Shown piece after piece: positions 15,968 to 43,121 of a stretch of DNA of 43,121 bases (positions within the stretch are counted from its first letter, which is position 1; the number at the start of each line of letters is the position of its first letter). This DNA is from a virus (Duplodnaviria; Heunggongvirae; Uroviricota; Caudoviricetes). The notes beneath the pieces are model-generated. The model saw nothing but the letters and a program-made list of their open reading frames with translations. It made no database searches and was not told where the DNA came from. The stretch is taken from the IMG/VR virus record IMGVR_UViG_2529292921_000020. One strand, given 5' to 3'. The position numbers and the translations under genes are program-made.

Positions 15968-16327
15968 ATGCTCATAGATTTGGTTTTACCTTACCCGCCG
16001 ACGGTGAACACTTACTGGCGACGCCGTGGCAGCACATATTTTGTATCAAAAGTCGGTGAGCGTTATCGCCGTGATGTGGCGCTTATTGTTCGCCAGCAGC
16101 AACTGAAATTAAACCTGTCCGGAAGGCCGGCAATAGAAATTATTGCAGAGCCACCGGATAAGCGCCGTCGTGACCTGGACAATATCCTGAAGGCACCACT
16201 GGATGTACTGACGCATGCGGGGCTGCTCATAGACGACGAGCAGTTTGATGAAATTAATATTGTGCGCGGTCAGCTTGTTCCTGGTGGGCGGTTGGGGATA
16301 AAAATCACAGAACTGGAGTATGCATGA
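15968..16327 (+). CDS. rusA: Holliday junction resolvase RusA
   Basis: 119-aa ORF; conserved RusA motifs (RRRDLDNILKA, LIDDEQ, GGRLGIKITE). Confidence 0.85.
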   Translation: MLIDLVLPYPPTVNTYWRRRGSTYFVSKVGERYRRDVALIVRQQQLKLNLSGRPAIEIIAEPPDKRRRDLDNILKAPLDVLTHAGLLIDDEQFDEINIVRGQLVPGGRLGIKITELEYA

Positions 16328-17013
16328 ATAACCAGTATTTACAGTTTGTTCGTGAGCAACTCATGATTGCCACCGCCGATTTGAGTGGATCAACAAAAGG
16401 GCAGCTTGAGGCCTGGCAGGAGAATGCCATGTTTGATACAGGGCGTTACAGGCGTAAAAAAATCCGGTACCGCGATGAAGTGACTGGAAAAATGATAACG
16501 CGGGATAATCCACCAATCCCGGGAAAGCAATCGCTGGCGAAGGGGGCGTCAATTCCTCTCGTCAGTCCGGTTGAGTTTTTGACATCATCGTGGCGGCGGG
16601 CTGTTCTGTCTCTTGAAGAACATCATAAAGCCTGGTTGTTGTGGTGTTACAGCGGGAGTATTTGTTGGGAATATCAGATCGCGATAACACAGTGGGCGTG
16701 GAATGAATTTAATACTCAATCCGGTACCAGAAAAATTGCTGGGAAAACGCAGGAACGCCTGAAAAAATTAATCTGGCTGGCGGCGCAGGCAGTAAAAGCA
16801 GAACTTTTTGGTGGGGAAGGTTATGAATATCAGGAGCTGGCATTACTGGCGGGAGTGACAACTAAAAACTGGTCCAAAACATTTACTCGTCACTGGGTTG
16901 CAATGAAACACATTTTTCACCGACTGGATAGTGAGGCTTTATTATTTGTAATGAGAACACGTTCAAAACAAAAGGCGGCATTTTCAAAGCAAAGTGTTGC
17001 AAAAGTAGATTGA
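16324..17013 (+). CDS. Late-gene antitermination protein Q-like
   Basis: 229-aa ORF directly after rusA and before the promoter, terminator and tRNA-lysis region, the canonical Q position; family assigned by synteny. Confidence 0.6.
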   Translation: MNNQYLQFVREQLMIATADLSGSTKGQLEAWQENAMFDTGRYRRKKIRYRDEVTGKMITRDNPPIPGKQSLAKGASIPLVSPVEFLTSSWRRAVLSLEEHHKAWLLWCYSGSICWEYQIAITQWAWNEFNTQSGTRKIAGKTQERLKKLIWLAAQAVKAELFGGEGYEYQELALLAGVTTKNWSKTFTRHWVAMKHIFHRLDSEALLFVMRTRSKQKAAFSKQSVAKVD

Positions 17014-17077
17014 AAGGCATATATTTCATGCAAATCTGATATTTTGCCGATTTTGTACGTGATGGCAAAATCAAACA

Positions 17078-17104
17078 AAACCCGCCCACAAGCGGGTTTT
17101 TTTG
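17078..17104 (+). terminator. Rho-independent terminator downstream of Q (tR'-like)
   Basis: AAAACCCGCCCACAAGCGGGTTTTTTTG: GC stem plus T7 run. Confidence 0.65.
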
Positions 17105-17170
17105 TGCCACTTATCTCGGATAGACATGGTGAATGCGCTGGTGGAGGAGATAAGGGTGATTTTTGTATGC

Positions 17171-17576: not shown

Positions 17577-19148
17577 TTACTGAGAGCTCAGATCAACTTT
17601 CCAGGGCAACAGATCGCGTACCCGGTTTGCCGGCCAGTCCTGGATATGTTCAATGACGTAACGCAGCCACTTTTCTGGCTCCACATTGTTCAGACGGCAT
17701 GTGCCGATCAGCGAGTACAACACCGCCGCATGTTCACCACCGCTGTCGGAACCCGCGAACATCCAGTTTTTCCGGCCTACGGCCACTCCCCGTAAGGCGT
17801 TCTCTGCGATGTTGTTGTCGATTTCCACCCAGCCATTACTGCAGTACACGTTCAGTGCATCCCACTGTTTCAGCAGGTATGCGAACGCTTTTGCCGTATC
17901 TGAGTGACGCGACAGTGTTTTCATCTGTTGCTGTATCCAGTCATACAGTGACTGCATCAGTGGCGCGGCTCTGGCTTTTCTTGCCGCCAGACGCTGTTCT
18001 GCTGAACAGCACCGGACCTCTGCCTCGATGGCATACAGTTCACCGATACGCTGCAGGGCTTCCGTGGTGATGTAGGTGGGCGCTCTTGCATGCACATCGT
18101 GGATTTTTCTCCGGGCATGAGCCATACACGCGGCTTCCGTTATTCTGCCGGATTCGTATAACGCCCGGTAACCACCGTAAGCATCGGCCTGAAGCACACC
18201 GCTGTAACCGGCCAGGTGATTTTGTGGATGGATACCTTTCCGGTCCGGACTGTACGCGAACCAGACCGCCGGGGGCATCTGTGAACCGGCGTTACGGTCA
18301 TCACGGACGTAGACCCACAGCCGGGCTGTCCGGGTTTTACCGCTGCCCGGCTCCTGGACCGGGACGGGGATATCATCAGCATGGACTTTACCGGGCATCA
18401 GCACATACTGGCGCAGGACGTCATACAGCGGCTCCAGCAGTTCAGCAACAGCACCTGTCCAGCGCCCCAGTGTGGCACGGCTCAGCTCCACGCCCTGACG
18501 ACGGTATATTTCTGACTGGCGGTATAACGGCAGATGGTCTGCATATTTCCCGGTGACAACATGGGCCAGAAGCCCCGCTCCGGCATAACTGCGTGCAATG
18601 GGTTTTGAAGGTACTGGTGCCTGCACGATATGGTCGCACCGGCAACAGGCCTGTTTCGGACGTTGTGTTTCGATAACCTTAAAGGCGCTGCTGATAAGCT
18701 CCAGTTGCTCTGACACATCACATCCCAGAGAACTGAGTTCACCACCACAGGCAGGACAGCATTCCTCTTCCGGCCGGATAACCCGGGTTTCACGGGGAAG
18801 TGAGGCCGGTAACGGTTTACGGGCTGAAGACTGGCGCAGGGCGGATGGCAGTACCGGGTCATATTGCTCACCCAGCGTTTCCGCCATTTCTTCCTGAAGT
18901 GCGCTGATTCGCTCCTGTGCTTCCTGTATCTGCCGTTCGGTTTTTGCACGAAGTTTTTCTGAGCTTTTACCGAACTGCATACGTTGCAGTTTCGCAACCA
19001 GCGCCTTCAGCCGGTTGATTTCGGAAGCATAAGCCGCCACCCGCTGTGAGAGCAGGCGGTTGTATTCAGCCATCTGGCGGATGGTGTCCTGTTGCGTCTG
19101 CAACAGTGCCCGCAGGCGGGCGTTCTCATGAGCAAGTGAGGTGTCCAT
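17577..19148 (-). CDS. IS66-family transposase (TnpC)
   Basis: 523-aa ORF with N-terminal coiled coil, Cys-rich zinc-binding region and DDE core typical of IS66 transposases. Confidence 0.85.
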
Positions 19149-19167
19149 ATCCTCACTTTACAACGGG

Positions 19168-19515
19168 TTATATGCGGATTCCAGCGCGTTCCGTTCGTTT
19201 CGGGTGCTTCCAGTTGATACCTTCAAGAAGCATGGATAACTGAGCCGGAGTAAGGTGCACCTTGCCGTCACGGGTGACTGGCCAGACGAAGCGGCCCCGC
19301 TCCAGGCGTTTGGTGAAGAGGCACAGTCCGTCACTGTCAGCCCACAACACTTTTATCTGGTCACCCCGGCGTCCGCGGAAGATGAACAGGTGTCCGGAGA
19401 ACGGGTCATCCTTCAGGACGTTCTGAACTTTTGATGCCAGGCCGTTAAAGCCATTTCGCATATCGGTGATACCTGCAACCAGCCAGATACGCGAACCTGC
19501 AGGGAGAGATATCAT
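19168..19515 (-). CDS. IS66 accessory protein TnpB (Orf2)
   Basis: 115-aa ORF MISLPAGSRIWLVAGITDMRNGFNGL..., characteristic IS66 Orf2. Confidence 0.8.
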   Translation of the reverse strand: MISLPAGSRIWLVAGITDMRNGFNGLASKVQNVLKDDPFSGHLFIFRGRRGDQIKVLWADSDGLCLFTKRLERGRFVWPVTRDGKVHLTPAQLSMLLEGINWKHPKRTERAGIRI

Positions 19516-20192
19516 CAGTGGCTGCTCCCTTTTATTTCGCGGATAAGTGTCTGTAATAACGCCGGCGTCAGTTTACCTTTAAGCCTGAGAGTTCCGGCCG
19601 GCAGAACCAGCTCACAACACAGACTGTCGGACGGTGTATTTATCTGCTCTGGTTCCTGTGCGGGGGCCGGGATTTTATTATCCGGCTCCGGCGTTAACGT
19701 CACGGGAAGCAGTGCCGGCATATTTTTTCCGGAAGGCAGCAGGCCACCTTTCCGGTATTGATGGCGCCAGTTGAAGAGCAGGTTATCGTTGATTCCGTTT
19801 TCCCGGGCGATCTGCGCCACACAGGCTCCGGGCTGCAGTGACTGCTCCACTAAGGCGATTTTAAACTCATAAGGGAAGTTGGGCCGCCGGGGACGTTTTT
19901 TTACCACGGGGGCTTCGGATATAACGGTGCTTTCAGGACGTACGACTGGTACCGTGGAAAATTGTCCGTAAAGGCAGGCATCAAGTTCCTGCTCCGACAT
20001 GCCTGCGGGCAAAGGCCACGAAAGGCCAGCTCTCCGAAAGCGCACGAACATACTACAAACTGTTGATTTTGGTACACCCAGGCGACGCCCGGCCACAACC
20101 CGGGGTAAATGTTCTTCAAAGTGAAGACGTAAAGCTTCAGTGATCCAGGTCCGGTGTTTCATACGATAGTGTCCATTAAAAATGATGGACAT
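19515..20192 (-). CDS. IS66 accessory protein TnpA (Orf1)
   Basis: 225-aa ORF with N-terminal HTH, first gene of the IS66 operon, coupled to TnpB. Confidence 0.7.
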   Translation of the reverse strand: MSIIFNGHYRMKHRTWITEALRLHFEEHLPRVVAGRRLGVPKSTVCSMFVRFRRAGLSWPLPAGMSEQELDACLYGQFSTVPVVRPESTVISEAPVVKKRPRRPNFPYEFKIALVEQSLQPGACVAQIARENGINDNLLFNWRHQYRKGGLLPSGKNMPALLPVTLTPEPDNKIPAPAQEPEQINTPSDSLCCELVLPAGTLRLKGKLTPALLQTLIREIKGSSH

Positions 20193-37793: not shown

Positions 37794-37812
37794 ATGATGA
37801 GAACCGCTGAGG

Positions 37813-39238
37813 TAATGCCAGTCAGTTAAGCAACTGACTGGCTCTTTTTCGGGGCTGTGGGGTATTTCCAGGGCCTCTCCTTTACCACTCTCGGGAAGGC
37901 CCTTTCCCTTCTTGTCGGTAATTTCACAAGTTGTCCCATACTTGCAAGATCGCGCATCAGCTCCGGTATACGTCCCGGTGAAGCGCCCTGCAATGTCATC
38001 AGCATTCTCATCACCATTCCGCATGATTCTGAGAAACTCAGTTGATTCGGCCAGTAACCTTTCAGATGTTCCGCCATTTTAATCATCTGATATCTCACCA
38101 GATTATAAGCCAGTAAGACACCCCACAGCTCTTGCTCCACAAGCTCCGGCTTTTTACTTCTCAGCGTCAGCCTGCTCCGTTGCATCGTCTGTTTTATCTC
38201 CCTGTATCCCAGTTCGATTTCCCAGCGATGACTGTACAGATCCCCCATTTCTCCTCCGGGGAAGCGCATGGCGTCCGTCATCGACGTCAGCAGATGGCAG
38301 ACTTTTCCTTTGCGCGTCACGGTCAGCAGGCGGGCAGTCACTTCATTTCCCAGTCCCGGCCACTTTTTTCGTGCCTGCGGGCTGGTTTTCAGCTTCACCA
38401 GATGATCGCCTTTACCCAGTTTTCTGATCTCTTCATATTGCGCTCCCTTTCTGAGAGGTATCATCCAGTGGCGGTGTTCTCCCGCCAGGCTCCAGGCATT
38501 TAACAGTCCCAGTGAGTAATAACCTTTATCCATTAACGTCAGAGTGTTATCGCCGGTTTGTTCTATAAGTTGCTCAGCAAGCTCATTTTCGCTGTTCTTC
38601 ATCGTGCCGAAGGCTGCAGCCGTCAGCAGATGGCTGGTCAGTTCCATCTGGCAGACCATTTTGACCTGCGGGTAGAGCGCCGGGTTCCCGGCATGTGTCT
38701 GGCGGGGGAAGGCTGCATCGTTCTCTGGTGTATCCGGTGTGCGCCAGAACACACCATCGATGGCCAGCAGGGTCAGGCCGCACCAGTGCGGATGCGGCGT
38801 GGCGTTATGCCAGAGCTGCGCTGTTTTCGTGAACACGCGGCGGACAGCCTCACTTCCCAGGCGCTGGCGGGCCTGAATAACGGCACTGGGGGCAACGAAG
38901 GGGCGATTGCCCGGCAGCATGATGTCCAGGCGATTCACAATCTGGTGAAGAGGTTCTTTACGCTCAAGCGCCATGCCAACAATACACCAGACCATCATTT
39001 CGAGGGGAAGACGGCGCTTGCGTAGCGTTACAGTACCTGATTCGGCAAGGCAACGAGAGATGAGTTCGGGGTCGAGGTAATCCCCCAGAGAAGTCAGTGG
39101 GTTACGCAGAGAATCGTAACGGGATACCAGATCAAGAGCCTGTCCAATGTGCATAAAAAAATCCGGAAACAAGTGAGCGTTTCCGGATTCTTACACAGCC
39201 ACTGGATCGGTCAACTGATCCTTAACTGATCGGCATTA
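37813..39238 (-). mobile_element. IS4, 1426 bp, flanked by 12-bp direct repeat GAACCGCTGAGG
   Basis: Termini TAATGCC... and ...GGCATTA; GAACCGCTGAGG at 37801-37812 and 39239-39250; element length matches IS4. Confidence 0.9.
37826..39154 (-). CDS. insG: IS4 transposase InsG
   Basis: Translation from [30 protein letters not shown]... matches my recollection of E. coli K-12 InsG; the ORF-track start at 39172 is 6 codons upstream of the likely true start. Confidence 0.9.
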
Positions 39239-39278
39239 GAACCGCTGAGGCGGTTTTTTTACGCCCGGAGAAAGGTGA

Positions 39279-42200
39279 ATGGCGACGTTACGTGAACTGA
39301 TTATCAAAATTTCGGCAAATTCGCAGTCATTCCAGTCGGAGATCCAGCGGGCTTCCCGCATGGGCAGTGAATATTACCGGACCCTGCAGAATGGCGGGCG
39401 TCAGGCTGCCGCAGTCGCCCGGGAGCAGCGACGCGCCCTGGCTGAGCTGAACAGCCAGTTGACGGAAATCCGCGCTTCAGCTGCCGGAACGGCGGGGGCA
39501 TTTGCAGGTGCCTTTGCCACCGGACACCTGATTTCTCTGGCCGATGAATGGAGTTCCGTGAATGCCCGACTGAAACAGGCGTCGCAGTCATCCGATGAAT
39601 TTTCGTCATCACAGAAAGTGCTGATGGATATCAGCCAGCGGACGGGCACGGCATTTTCAGATAATGCGGCCCTGTTTGCCCGCTCGGCAGCCTCAATGCG
39701 TGAATATGGTTACAGTGCTGATGATGTGCTGAAGGTGACGGAGGCCATTTCCACGGGGCTGAAAATCTCCGGTGCCAGTACGGCAGAGGCGGGCTCGGTG
39801 ATCACCCAGTTCAGCCAGGCGCTGGCACAGGGTGTGTTACGCGGTGAGGAATTTAATTCGGTCAATGAAAGCGGAGACCGGATCGTACGTGCACTGGCTG
39901 CGGGTATGGGCGTGGCCCGTAAAGACCTTAAGGCGATGGCGGACGACGGCAAACTGACGGCGGATAAAGTCGTTCCTGCGTTAATCAGCCAGCTGGGGGT
40001 ATTGCGTGATGAATATGCCGCCATGCCGGAAACGGTCTCTGACGGGATCACAAAGGTGGAAAACGCCTTTATGGCCTGGGTGGGTGGCGCGAATGAAGCC
40101 AGCGGAGCGACGAAAACGCTCTCCGGCGTGCTGAACGGTGTTGCCGGTAATATTGATAATGTGGCAACAGCCGCTGGGGCGCTGGTTGCCGTCGGGGTTG
40201 CCCGGTACTTTGGCAATATGGCCTCCGGAGCGGTGTCTGCCACGGCAGGACTTGTGACGGCAGCACGTAATGAAGTGGCACTGGCGGAAGCACAGCTCAG
40301 GGGGACGCAGATTGCCACGGCGCGGGCAAGGGCAGCCGTGTACCGTGCACAGCAGGCTGTGGCGGCAGCCCGCGGGACGGAGATGCAGATTGCTGCAGAA
40401 GCCCGTCTGGCGGCCACACAGGAACGCCTGAACAGAAATATTGCTGCCAGAACCGCAGCCCAGAATGCGCTGAACAGTACAACGGCGGTGGGCTCACGTC
40501 TGATGACTGGTGCGTTGGGACTGGTTGGTGGCGTACCCGGACTGGTGATGCTGGGGGCAGCAGCATGGTATACGCTGTACCAGAATCAGGAGCAGGCCAG
40601 GGAGTCAGCGCGCCAGTATGCACTGACGATAGATGAAATCGCGCATAAAACGCTGTCAATGTCTTTGCCTGAAGCCTCAGATAATGAAGGACGAACACGG
40701 GCGGCGCTGGCAGAGCAGAACCGGCTGATTGATGAACAGGCCAGCCGGGTGAAATCCCTGCAGGAAAAAATCGCTGGATATCAGTATGTTCTGGCTAACC
40801 CTGGCTGGACAACCGGTGACGGATTCATGATAAACCATCTGACATCGGTGAAGACCGTGACGGAAGGGCTTTCTCAGGCAACAGAGCAGCTTGCCGTTGA
40901 GCAGTCCCGTCTGGCACAGATGCAGGAAAAAGCGCAGTCCATTCAGGATGTGCTTGCCGGGCTGGAAGACCGTCGTGTGGCGTTAATTCGTCAGCAGGCG
41001 ACAGAGCAGAATAAGGTGTACCAGTCCATGCTGGTTATGAACGGTCAGCATACGGAATTCAACCGTCTGCTGGGGCTGGGTAATGAACTGCTTCAGCAGC
41101 GGCAGGGACTGGTGAATGTGCCGTTACGGCTGCCACAGGCCACTCTGGATGATAAACAGCAGAGTGCCCTGACAAAAACAGAGCGTGAGCTGGCCCTGTC
41201 CAGACTGAAAGGGGAAGAAAAAGAGCGTGTCCGACTGGGGTATGCGGCGGATGACCTCGGTTTTGTGGGTGAACCGTATCAGGAGGCGAGACAACGTTAT
41301 ATCAGTAATGCCCTGGAAGCCTGGCGCAATAACGAGGCGAATAAACCCAAATCCCGGGGTGGAAAATCAGAGACGGAAAAAGCGGAAGACAGTTTTTCCC
41401 GGCTGCTGAAGCAGCAGAAAGAGCAATTGGCACTTGCGGGGCAGAATACAGAGCTGGCGAAGCTGAAATACCAGACTGCGCAGGGCGAACTGAAAACCCT
41501 GACGGAGATGCAGAAGCAGGAACTGCTGCGCAATGCGGCCCTGATTGACCAGCAAAAAATCCGGGAGCAGTTGCGGTCCCGGGAAGAGACCCTGAAGAAT
41601 GATAATGTGGCTGCGCGTGCATCAAATGAAGCGGAACTGCTGGGGTACGGGCAGGGAGAGCGGCTCCGTGAACGCATGCGGGAGTTGCAGCAGATCCGCG
41701 ACAGTTTCCGCCAGAAGGATGCGGACCTTCAGTCTCAGTATCAGACCGGGGATATCAGTGAGGATTTTTACAGACAGGCTCTGGCACAGAACGCGCAGTA
41801 TCTGAGTGAACGTCTGAAAGAGCAGGAAGCCTTTTATGCCGAATCGGATGTGCAGCGTGCGGACTGGCAGAAAGGGCTGCAGGAGGGATTCAGTAACTGG
41901 GTGGATAATGCGTCCGATTACGCCTCACAGGCAGCACAGCTGGCGACGGAGGGTATCTCAGGGATGGTGAATAACATCACGGAGATGCTGAACGGAAATA
42001 AAGTGGAATGGCGCAGCTGGGCCTCATCAGTGCTGCAGGAAATATCAAAAGTTCTTATGAATGCCGCGATTGACAACGGGATCAAGACGGCGGCAAACAG
42101 TATGTCCGGAGCGGGAGGATTTATCGGCAGTATTGGTAGCTGGCTGGGCGGTGCGGTGGCCAATGCAAAAGGCGGGGTGTATACCTCGGCAAACCTGAGT

Positions 42201-42521
42201 GCGTACAGCAACAGTATTGTGGATACGCCCACGTACTTTGCCTTTGCAAAAGGGGCGGGACTGATGGGGGAGGCCGGTCCTGAAGCCATTATGCCCCTGA
42301 CCCGGGCGGCGGATGGCTCGCTGGGTGTGCGAGCGGTGGGCAGTATGAACGGCAGTGCAGGTCTGGTGTATTCCCCGGTCTACCATATCGCCATTCAGAA
42401 TGACGGGACTAATGGCCAGATAGGGCCGGAAGCTGCGGGCAGCCTTGTGCAACTGATTGACCAGCGGGTGCAGGCGGTGATGCTGTCCATGCGACGTGAC
42501 GGAGGAATGCTGAGTGGCTGA
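39279..42521 (+). CDS. Tail tape measure protein (lambda H-like)
   Basis: 1080-aa ORF, alpha-helical and Ala/Gln-rich with Gly-rich hydrophobic segments; located between G-T and M. Confidence 0.85.
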   Translation: MATLRELIIKISANSQSFQSEIQRASRMGSEYYRTLQNGGRQAAAVAREQRRALAELNSQLTEIRASAAGTAGAFAGAFATGHLISLADEWSSVNARLKQASQSSDEFSSSQKVLMDISQRTGTAFSDNAALFARSAASMREYGYSADDVLKVTEAISTGLKISGASTAEAGSVITQFSQALAQGVLRGEEFNSVNESGDRIVRALAAGMGVARKDLKAMADDGKLTADKVVPALISQLGVLRDEYAAMPETVSDGITKVENAFMAWVGGANEASGATKTLSGVLNGVAGNIDNVATAAGALVAVGVARYFGNMASGAVSATAGLVTAARNEVALAEAQLRGTQIATARARAAVYRAQQAVAAARGTEMQIAAEARLAATQERLNRNIAARTAAQNALNSTTAVGSRLMTGALGLVGGVPGLVMLGAAAWYTLYQNQEQARESARQYALTIDEIAHKTLSMSLPEASDNEGRTRAALAEQNRLIDEQASRVKSLQEKIAGYQYVLANPGWTTGDGFMINHLTSVKTVTEGLSQATEQLAVEQSRLAQMQEKAQSIQDVLAGLEDRRVALIRQQATEQNKVYQSMLVMNGQHTEFNRLLGLGNELLQQRQGLVNVPLRLPQATLDDKQQSALTKTERELALSRLKGEEKERVRLGYAADDLGFVGEPYQEARQRYISNALEAWRNNEANKPKSRGGKSETEKAEDSFSRLLKQQKEQLALAGQNTELAKLKYQTAQGELKTLTEMQKQELLRNAALIDQQKIREQLRSREETLKNDNVAARASNEAELLGYGQGERLRERMRELQQIRDSFRQKDADLQSQYQTGDISEDFYRQALAQNAQYLSERLKEQEAFYAESDVQRADWQKGLQEGFSNWVDNASDYASQAAQLATEGISGMVNNITEMLNGNKVEWRSWASSVLQEISKVLMNAAIDNGIKTAANSMSGAGGFIGSIGSWLGGAVANAKGGVYTSANLSAYSNSIVDTPTYFAFAKGAGLMGEAGPEAIMPLTRAADGSLGVRAVGSMNGSAGLVYSPVYHIAIQNDGTNGQIGPEAAGSLVQLIDQRVQAVMLSMRRDGGMLSG

Positions 42522-42855
42522 GATAAAAACGCTGCATCTGGTCCCGCGTGAAGGGATGCAGGTGAGTGAGAAACCGTCGGTGGCGAGGGTACGGTTTGGT
42601 GACGGTTATGAACAGCGCCGCCCGACGGGACTTAATGCCCGACTGAAGACGTTTCAGGCGGTGTTCCGGGTGACGGATGAGGCGACCCGGCGATGGCTGG
42701 AAGAGTTTTTATCGTGGCATGGTGGTTACCGTGCCTTTTTGTGGCGACCGCCGAAACATAACCGGACGGTGAGGGTGGTATGCCGGGAGTGGAGCGTCAC
42801 AGATAACGCCAGGTACAGTGATTTCAGTTGTACGATTGAGCAGGTGGTGAACTGA
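42514..42855 (+). CDS. Minor tail protein M
   Basis: 113-aa ORF overlapping the tape measure stop; lambda gpM-like size and position. Confidence 0.7.
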   Translation: MAEIKTLHLVPREGMQVSEKPSVARVRFGDGYEQRRPTGLNARLKTFQAVFRVTDEATRRWLEEFLSWHGGYRAFLWRPPKHNRTVRVVCREWSVTDNARYSDFSCTIEQVVN

Positions 42856-43121
42856 TGCAGGATATTCACGAAGAAAGTCTGAACGAGTCGGTTAAATCAG
42901 AGCAGTCACCGCGGGTGGTACTCTGGGAAATCGACCTGACGGTACAGGGTGGTGAGCGGTATTTTTTCTGCAATGAGCTGAATGAAAAAGGGGAGGCGGT
43001 TACCTGGCAGGGGCGGCAATATCAGGCATACCCGATTGACGGCAGTGGCTTTGAGATGAACGGGAAGGGCAGCAGTGCCCGCCCGTCGCTGACGGTGTCG
43101 AATCTGTTCGGTCTGGTCACC
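42855..43121 (+). CDS. Minor tail protein L, N-terminal part (runs off the window)
   Basis: Open frame from ATG at 42855 to the window end (MQDIHEESLNESVKSEQSPRVVLWEIDLTVQGGERYFFCNE...); follows M as in lambda. Confidence 0.65.
   Translation, partial: MQDIHEESLNESVKSEQSPRVVLWEIDLTVQGGERYFFCNELNEKGEAVTWQGRQYQAYPIDGSGFEMNGKGSSARPSLTVSNLFGLVT

Follow-up and report, generated by a model that had tools for sequence, protein, structure and literature searches.

The 43,121-nucleotide stretch of DNA analyzed here (the window; IMG/VR record IMGVR_UViG_2529292921_000020, a virus of the Caudoviricetes) very probably records the recent transposition of an intact copy of the insertion sequence (IS) IS4 into the 47-bp spacer between tail genes T and H of a lambdoid prophage with an HK97-like tail. 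This is a known element behaving as known, and the event is an ordinary one with nothing that departs from established behavior. The complete element occupies positions 37813-39238, spans 1426 bp, and lies in its canonical orientation on the minus strand. Comparison by megablast with 5,426 complete Escherichia coli genomes aligned it with IS4 (insG) of K-12 MG1655 at 100% identity over positions 1-1426, and the same full-length 100% match recurs in many E. coli strains besides MG1655. The terminal sequences are TAATGCCAGTCAGTTAAG at the start and CTTAACTGATCGGCATTA at the finish, and the 18-bp terminal inverted repeats are imperfect (37813-37830 and 39221-39238 agree at 16 of 18 positions), with the left repeat (IRL) at 39238-39221, the right repeat (IRR) at 37813-37830, and symmetric outermost ends, TAATGCC...GGCATTA. 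The sole long open reading frame (ORF), at 37826..39154 on the minus strand, is intact and encodes the 442-amino acid transposase InsG from an ATG at 39154, while the RefSeq annotation gives a 448-amino acid form from a TTG start at 39172. InsG contains the Pfam domains Nterm_IS4 (3e-33) and DDE_Tnp_1 (2.8e-31) as well as the YREK signature, Y(2)R(3)E(6)K, at residue 307. At the sequence level, length, identity, inverted repeats, transposase ORF, and target duplication are all those of IS4. Full-length identity with the K-12 copy, together with the transposase domains and motif, bears out the identification made from sequence inspection in an earlier note on this DNA (the original prediction), in which the 1426-bp length and all coordinates were exact. 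Relative to the K-12 element, which is the founding member of the IS4 family, the window copy has the same length, the same repeats, and the same transposase, and its duplication falls within the known range of 11-13 bp; it differs in location alone, which here is a spacer in a prophage tail operon.

The element is flanked on the plus strand by two 12-bp target site duplications at 37801..37812 (left) and 39239..39250 (right). The original prediction had named non-identity of these repeats as its refuting condition; at the exact coordinates both read GAACCGCTGAGG, an identity with a chance probability of about 6e-8 for 12 nt at set positions. A 13-bp duplication was considered and rejected: the A at 37800 also matches the A at 39238, but the latter belongs to the symmetric IS end, and because the symmetric ends of IS4 set the boundary the duplication is 12 bp. 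A 3.5-kb query across the element matched 94 phage records, in all of which the flanks are joined and approximately 41% of the query is absent. In ON470597, LC567821, and NC_049942 the match covers 2,063 bp, equal to 3,501 minus 1,438 (1426 + 12), and a single 12-mer is left in the uninterrupted site, ...TGAATGATGAGAACCGCTGAGGCGGTTTTTTTACGCC... The site in these three records, TGAATGATGAGAACCGCTGAGGCGGTTTTTTTACGCCCGGAGAAAGGTGAATG, is the same as the empty site reconstructed from the window. The reconstruction offered in the original prediction accordingly exists as real sequence, identical to the window minus 1,438 bp, and the uninterrupted 800-bp site is present in 1,244 of the 5,426 complete E. 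coli genomes.

No complete E. coli genome among the 5,426 searched has the occupied left junction, and the occupied junction was absent from phage records, metagenome contigs, and IMG/VR scans. Exact look-up of the 1080-amino acid tape measure protein encoded by H returned ten places, one of them occupied and nine with the empty site. The occupied junction was found in a single public contig, AIEW01000022.1 (GCA_000249075.2), the source of the window; the window corresponds to its final 43,121 bases and agrees with it at every position compared (35279-43121, 0 mismatches). Because nine places encoding an identical tape measure protein have the empty site, the insertion can be taken as recent and private; judged from these sequence comparisons, it is a genuine insertion restricted to one strain as far as public data show. 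The end of the window at 43121 is also the end of the contig and falls inside a homologue of tail gene L, where truncation of the prophage marks an assembly boundary and not biology.

The assignment of the insertion point to the gap between T and the tape measure gene, as originally predicted, agrees with the Pfam domains on either side. Upstream of the element are an Ig-decorated tail tube protein (36383-37099, identified through Pfam), the tail assembly chaperone G (37066..37488, plus strand; Phage_TAC_1, 2.7e-61), and the ORF for tail protein T (37512..37793, plus strand; Phage_tail_T, 1.2e-18; stop codon at 37791-37793), and downstream is the tape measure protein H (39279..42521, plus strand; 1080 amino acids; TMP_3, Phage_HK97_TLTM, and Tape_meas_lam_C). 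A slippery heptamer, A AAA AAG, occurs at 37479, three codons ahead of the stop codon of G, and from 37464 onward the -1 frame stays open into T; a programmed frameshift yielding a G-T fusion fits both features and is plausible from the sequence. The chaperone, a T gene in the -1 frame with its heptamer, and the tape measure gene together make up a lambda-like G / G-T / H tail assembly module. Within the 47-bp spacer, as it is measured without the IS, the duplication begins 7 nt past the T stop and finishes 28 nt before the H start. No coding sequence or ribosome-binding site is broken, H keeps its own Shine-Dalgarno sequence (GGAG), and G, T, and H are all intact.

The original prediction held further that IS4 had landed in a terminator-like stem-loop. 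That part stands, as the empty site contains a hairpin followed by a T7 run. As a refinement, the duplication is not centered on the hairpin: it lies 3 nt off the dyad because one target arm dominates, and takes in the left arm of the stem, the loop, and a single base from the right arm. The native hairpin, AACCGC/UGAG/GCGGUU followed by U5 (seven U in all), has a 6-bp stem with 4 G-C pairs, a 4-nt loop, and a U7 run. It is weak, with a folding energy of -7.2 kcal/mol, although more stable than shuffled sequences (mean -2.3, z -3.0; 1 of 200 shuffles as stable). The 91-nt empty spacer with its flanks has no significant overall structure (z -0.68), so that the local hairpin alone stands out, and no known Rfam RNA family was found in 36000-40000. 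The T-side copy of the duplication adjoins the IS end, runs into IS sequence, and cannot form the hairpin, while on the H side the hairpin and T-run (AACCGC-TGAG-GCGGTT, 39240..39262, plus strand) are regenerated with the same sequence as in empty sites.

Variation at the empty site suggests that the T-H hairpin is a real conserved element under selection for structure. Among 80 IMG/VR loci encoding T, most have the same hairpin sequence as the window, and five (L196, L197, and three more, at approximately 985-1015) have an alternative allele, AAAACCTGC-TGTG-GCAGGTTTT, that retains the hairpin and T-run architecture through the compensatory replacement of CCGC/GCGG by CCTGC/GCAGG. At one T locus a C-to-T change retains a U.G pair, and at another the A/U part of the stem is longer. 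The relatives of the T protein in IMG/VR all show 97% identity or higher, and the hairpin covariation consists of two variant alleles only. Between the tail terminator and major tail genes, at 36346-36360 (L002 1047-1061), is a second conserved terminator-like hairpin, CCCGCCGCGTGCGGG with TTTTTT after it. Together the two hairpins suggest that the tail operon transcript may be punctuated internally.

The choice of this spacer is best viewed against the target pattern of IS4 in general. In the junction search, other IS4 copies were noticed to match 8-19 bases into the window flank. Copies of IS4 and its close relatives were collected with their flanks from E. coli genomes, IMG/VR, and GTDB representative genomes, giving 110 loci that reduce to 55 unique insertions with clean duplications. 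The duplications are 11-14 bp long, with a mode of 12 bp (28 of 55), and most begin with C (46 of 55) and end with G (48 of 55). Positions -7 to -4 are A in 41-46 of the 55 sites, positions +4 to +7 are T in 41-46, and the 3 nt separating each tract from the duplication are mostly G/C and mutually complementary in 21 sites. The resulting consensus is A4, N3, a C...G duplication of 11-14 bp, N3, and T4 (AAAA-nnn-[C...G]-nnn-TTTT), which as sequence resembles the geometry of a bidirectional intrinsic terminator. The satP terminator (L006) is one terminator-shaped example, and many Rahnella sites, aaaaaaaccgCCTGCGAATGAAGGcggtttttttt among them, are others. Of the 55 sites, 47 have an A or T run at the correct distance on at least one side, compared with 4.9% of 1,920 control positions from the same loci (Fisher p 5e-49), and both runs are present at 20 of 55 sites compared with 0.1% of controls. 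Median fold energies also differ, -12.9 kcal/mol for sites and -4.6 kcal/mol for controls (p 5e-11). Arms with the 3-nt spacing occur at gene-disrupting insertions as well, in exoX, in fiu, and, in a related prophage, in the tape measure gene. Because insertions within genes show the same pattern, targeting underlies it, and survival of harmless insertions is not the whole explanation.

Conservation of left and right target arms in the IS4 subgroup is already known (De Palmenaer, Siguier, and Mahillon 2008, PMC2266710), and the word 'terminator' does not occur in the text of that article as searched. Measured by the target specificity described there, the T-side arm of the window site fits exactly and the A-side arm poorly. 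In the searchable part of the literature, neither an explicit link between IS4 and terminators, nor use of such a link to predict where IS4 lands, nor an AAA-N20-TTT consensus was found. Such a consensus was reportedly put forward by Mayaux and colleagues in 1984. The link to terminators is the one mildly new angle, a generalization from the 55 sites that does not pertain to this locus as such. The transposases of IS4 and close relatives might systematically seek out terminator-like sites, reading the A-tract, GC hairpin, and T-tract of intrinsic terminators, above all bidirectional ones, and cutting 3 nt inside the tracts; we consider this proposal evenly poised between true and false.

In the plus orientation the window site reads aatgatga, then GAACCGCTGAGG, then cgg-TTTTTTT. 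Its T-side arm (CGG followed by T7) is canonical and in exact register, and G is the last base of the duplication. A position weight matrix (PWM) was built from the other 54 sites and scanned over the 41.7-kb IS-less window with duplication lengths of 11-14. The true position and register ranked 30th of 166,596, or 8th among distinct loci, with z +4.1, so the comparison with the IS4 target consensus that the original prediction had put forward as a check came out in favor of a preferred target. The best-scoring IS4 target in the window is a tR'-like hairpin after Q (PWM 20.3 vs 12.4 for the used site), and third place goes to the hairpin ahead of the major tail gene (about 36344). The first of these, caaacaaaacccGCCCACAAGCGGgtttttttgtgc at approximately 17072-17107 (about 17084), resembles a tR'-type late terminator some 60 nt past Q and is unoccupied.

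Related sequence has been entered by IS4 independently at other points. In a related prophage, approximately 95% identical (IMG/VR UViG_2563366897_000002), an independent IS4 (L012 1767-3192) lies inside the tape measure gene, flanked by a 12-bp duplication, CAGCCGGGCACG, equivalent to window positions 41226-41237, and the T-H site is empty. In other E. coli genomes (L007 and L024) IS4 lies inside the same IS66-type element that the window contains, at the equivalent of 19881-19892, with the duplication GGGCCGCCGGGG followed by acgTTTTTTT. The equivalent intact site in the window ranks 10th by PWM, a rank to be read with the knowledge that both sites were in the training set.

Mechanistically, the insertion would have proceeded by cut-and-paste transposition catalyzed by the DDE transposase, in which the two 3'-OH ends attack the target approximately one helical turn apart, by analogy with the biochemistry of IS10/IS50 and IS231A. 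Repair of a 12-bp staggered cut left the perfect duplication. Indirect evidence of transposition activity comes from the intact ORF and ends, the private insertion, and the empty sites in sister strains. Following the same relatives, the target would be chosen through the A/T-tract arms, possibly via DNA bending. IS231A, one of the closest functional analogies along with the classical polar IS insertions, reportedly prefers GGG(N)5CCC between A/T-rich tracts, a target for which bending is predicted, in work attributed to Hallet and colleagues in 1994. By description, the two elements share a GC-ended duplication of about one helical turn, A/T flanks, and a transposase family; IS231A differs in belonging to another subgroup, in its Bacillus hosts, and in its end sequences.

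The suggestion in the original prediction that IS4 may disturb tail gene expression is an inference from sequence. A hairpin within the element at 37817..37849 (plus strand; 11 bp with 6 G-C pairs) begins 5 nt inside the IS, is followed by TCTTTTT (UCUUUUU in RNA), and faces transcription arriving from T. With a folding energy of -18.7 kcal/mol (z -6.1), it is the strongest terminator-like site in a 4.5-kb scan. Beyond it lies 1.4 kb of untranslated antisense IS RNA, and the scan found no plus-strand promoter-like site at the far IS4 end able to drive H. Transcription by ordinary RNA polymerase would plausibly be strongly polar on H and the tail genes beyond it. In lambda, Q-modified polymerase ignores such terminators, and polarity of classical IS insertions in lambda and bacterial operons is relieved by phage antitermination. 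The window encodes a Q antiterminator at 16324-17013 (Pfam Phage_antiter_Q), and by analogy Q-antiterminated late expression may be little affected by IS4. The present case is like the classical polar insertions in having an IS with terminator-like hairpins inside a transcription unit and Q encoded upstream, with the difference that the effect here is predicted only. On the opposite strand, a 15-bp leader hairpin with a U7 run (39157..39192, minus strand) sits directly upstream of the transposase ATG. The 76-nt leader (39140-39215) folds at -32.1 kcal/mol (z -5.4), and a promoter-like sequence, TTGACC-16-AAGAAT at 39214-39187 (minus strand), overlaps the hairpin. This arrangement looks like a built-in barrier or translational control that would shield the transposase from outside transcription.

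IS4 is not alone in this prophage. An IS50-like element at 33962-35511, with ends CTGTCTCTT and CTGTCTCTTGATCAG... / ...AAGAGACAG and direct repeats GTCGGCTGGG at 33952-33961 and 35512-35521, encodes a minus-strand transposase (33973-35262; Pfam Tnp_DNA_bind, DDE_Tnp_1, and Dimer_Tnp_Tn5) and clips the 3' end of a head-closure ORF at 33624-34034. The same element is present in relatives that lack IS4 (L120-L123 and L125), and because these relatives carry it the IS50-like element predates IS4. An IS66-family unit at 17577-20192 on the minus strand (tnpC, 523 amino acids; tnpB, 115 amino acids; tnpA-like, 225 amino acids) lies just downstream of Q and separates the late regulatory region from the late genes. 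The prophage was probably already decaying, accumulating ISs before IS4 arrived.

The insertion itself is most likely a neutral event steered by the target preference of IS4, and several observations weigh against accepting this account in full. Only one of the two target arms is canonical, the A-side arm (AATGATGA) being poor, and the PWM score of 12.4 compares with a training median of 16.8, which places the site at the 20th percentile, in the lowest fifth of real sites. Seven other places in the prophage outscore it, including the hairpins after Q and before the major tail gene. The target preference thus explains the choice of site only probabilistically, the site being neither the only nor the best option. 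A simple consensus terminator scan did not list the native T-H hairpin, probably because its stem can extend into the T-run. Cut-and-paste transposition for IS4 itself we infer from its relatives, and both the polarity and its relief by Q are expectations of the same conditional kind. The completeness of the prophage is judged in part only, as the window stops at the contig end inside gene L.

Were the choice of site random, the intergenic position would reflect selection, in the form of survival of a harmless insertion, and not targeting. All coding sequence is indeed spared, as such an account would have it, and a site with one matched arm and a score in the lower fifth of known sites makes a modest case for preference. 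Harmlessness, however, cannot explain why the arms recur at fixed spacing in insertions that disrupt exoX, fiu, and the tape measure gene, nor does random choice account for a cut register that is canonical relative to the T7 run, and a decaying prophage offers little selection to filter insertions. We consider random choice very unlikely. It could also be supposed that the insertion is adaptive for the host, silencing the prophage by shutting off H and the distal tail genes, and the strong terminator-like hairpin that now follows T, together with two further ISs suggestive of ongoing inactivation, would fit. Yet the occupied site is known from one public contig, nine places with an identical tape measure gene product lack IS4, and there is no sign of spread; moreover, the older IS50-like element already clips the head-closure gene, and by analogy with lambda Q antitermination is expected to override the block. 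An adaptive origin is in our estimation highly improbable. With a draft contig as the source and a contig break at the end of the window, the question arises whether IS4 reads were misplaced in the draft genome to give an assembly artefact or chimera. Misplaced reads would not yield two junctions that are base-precise at canonical IS4 ends, together with a perfect 12-bp repeat of sequence present only once in relatives, and this explanation is almost certainly wrong. The neutral, preference-guided insertion of IS4 is the reading that we retain.

For this window, the main use of the result is correct annotation: G, T, and H are intact, with 47 bp plus an IS between T and H. The T-H hairpin and the hairpin before the major tail gene may have effects on mRNA stability or gene dosage. 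For the IS4 family more broadly, the 55-site model is simple and quantitative, selects terminator-like hairpins, and could serve to predict or recognize IS4 insertion sites. If IS4 and its relatives do seek out terminator-like sites, most copies would land in intergenic 3' ends and regenerate one copy of the hairpin, with little harm to the genes around them, and the insertion between T and H would be one instance of this behavior.

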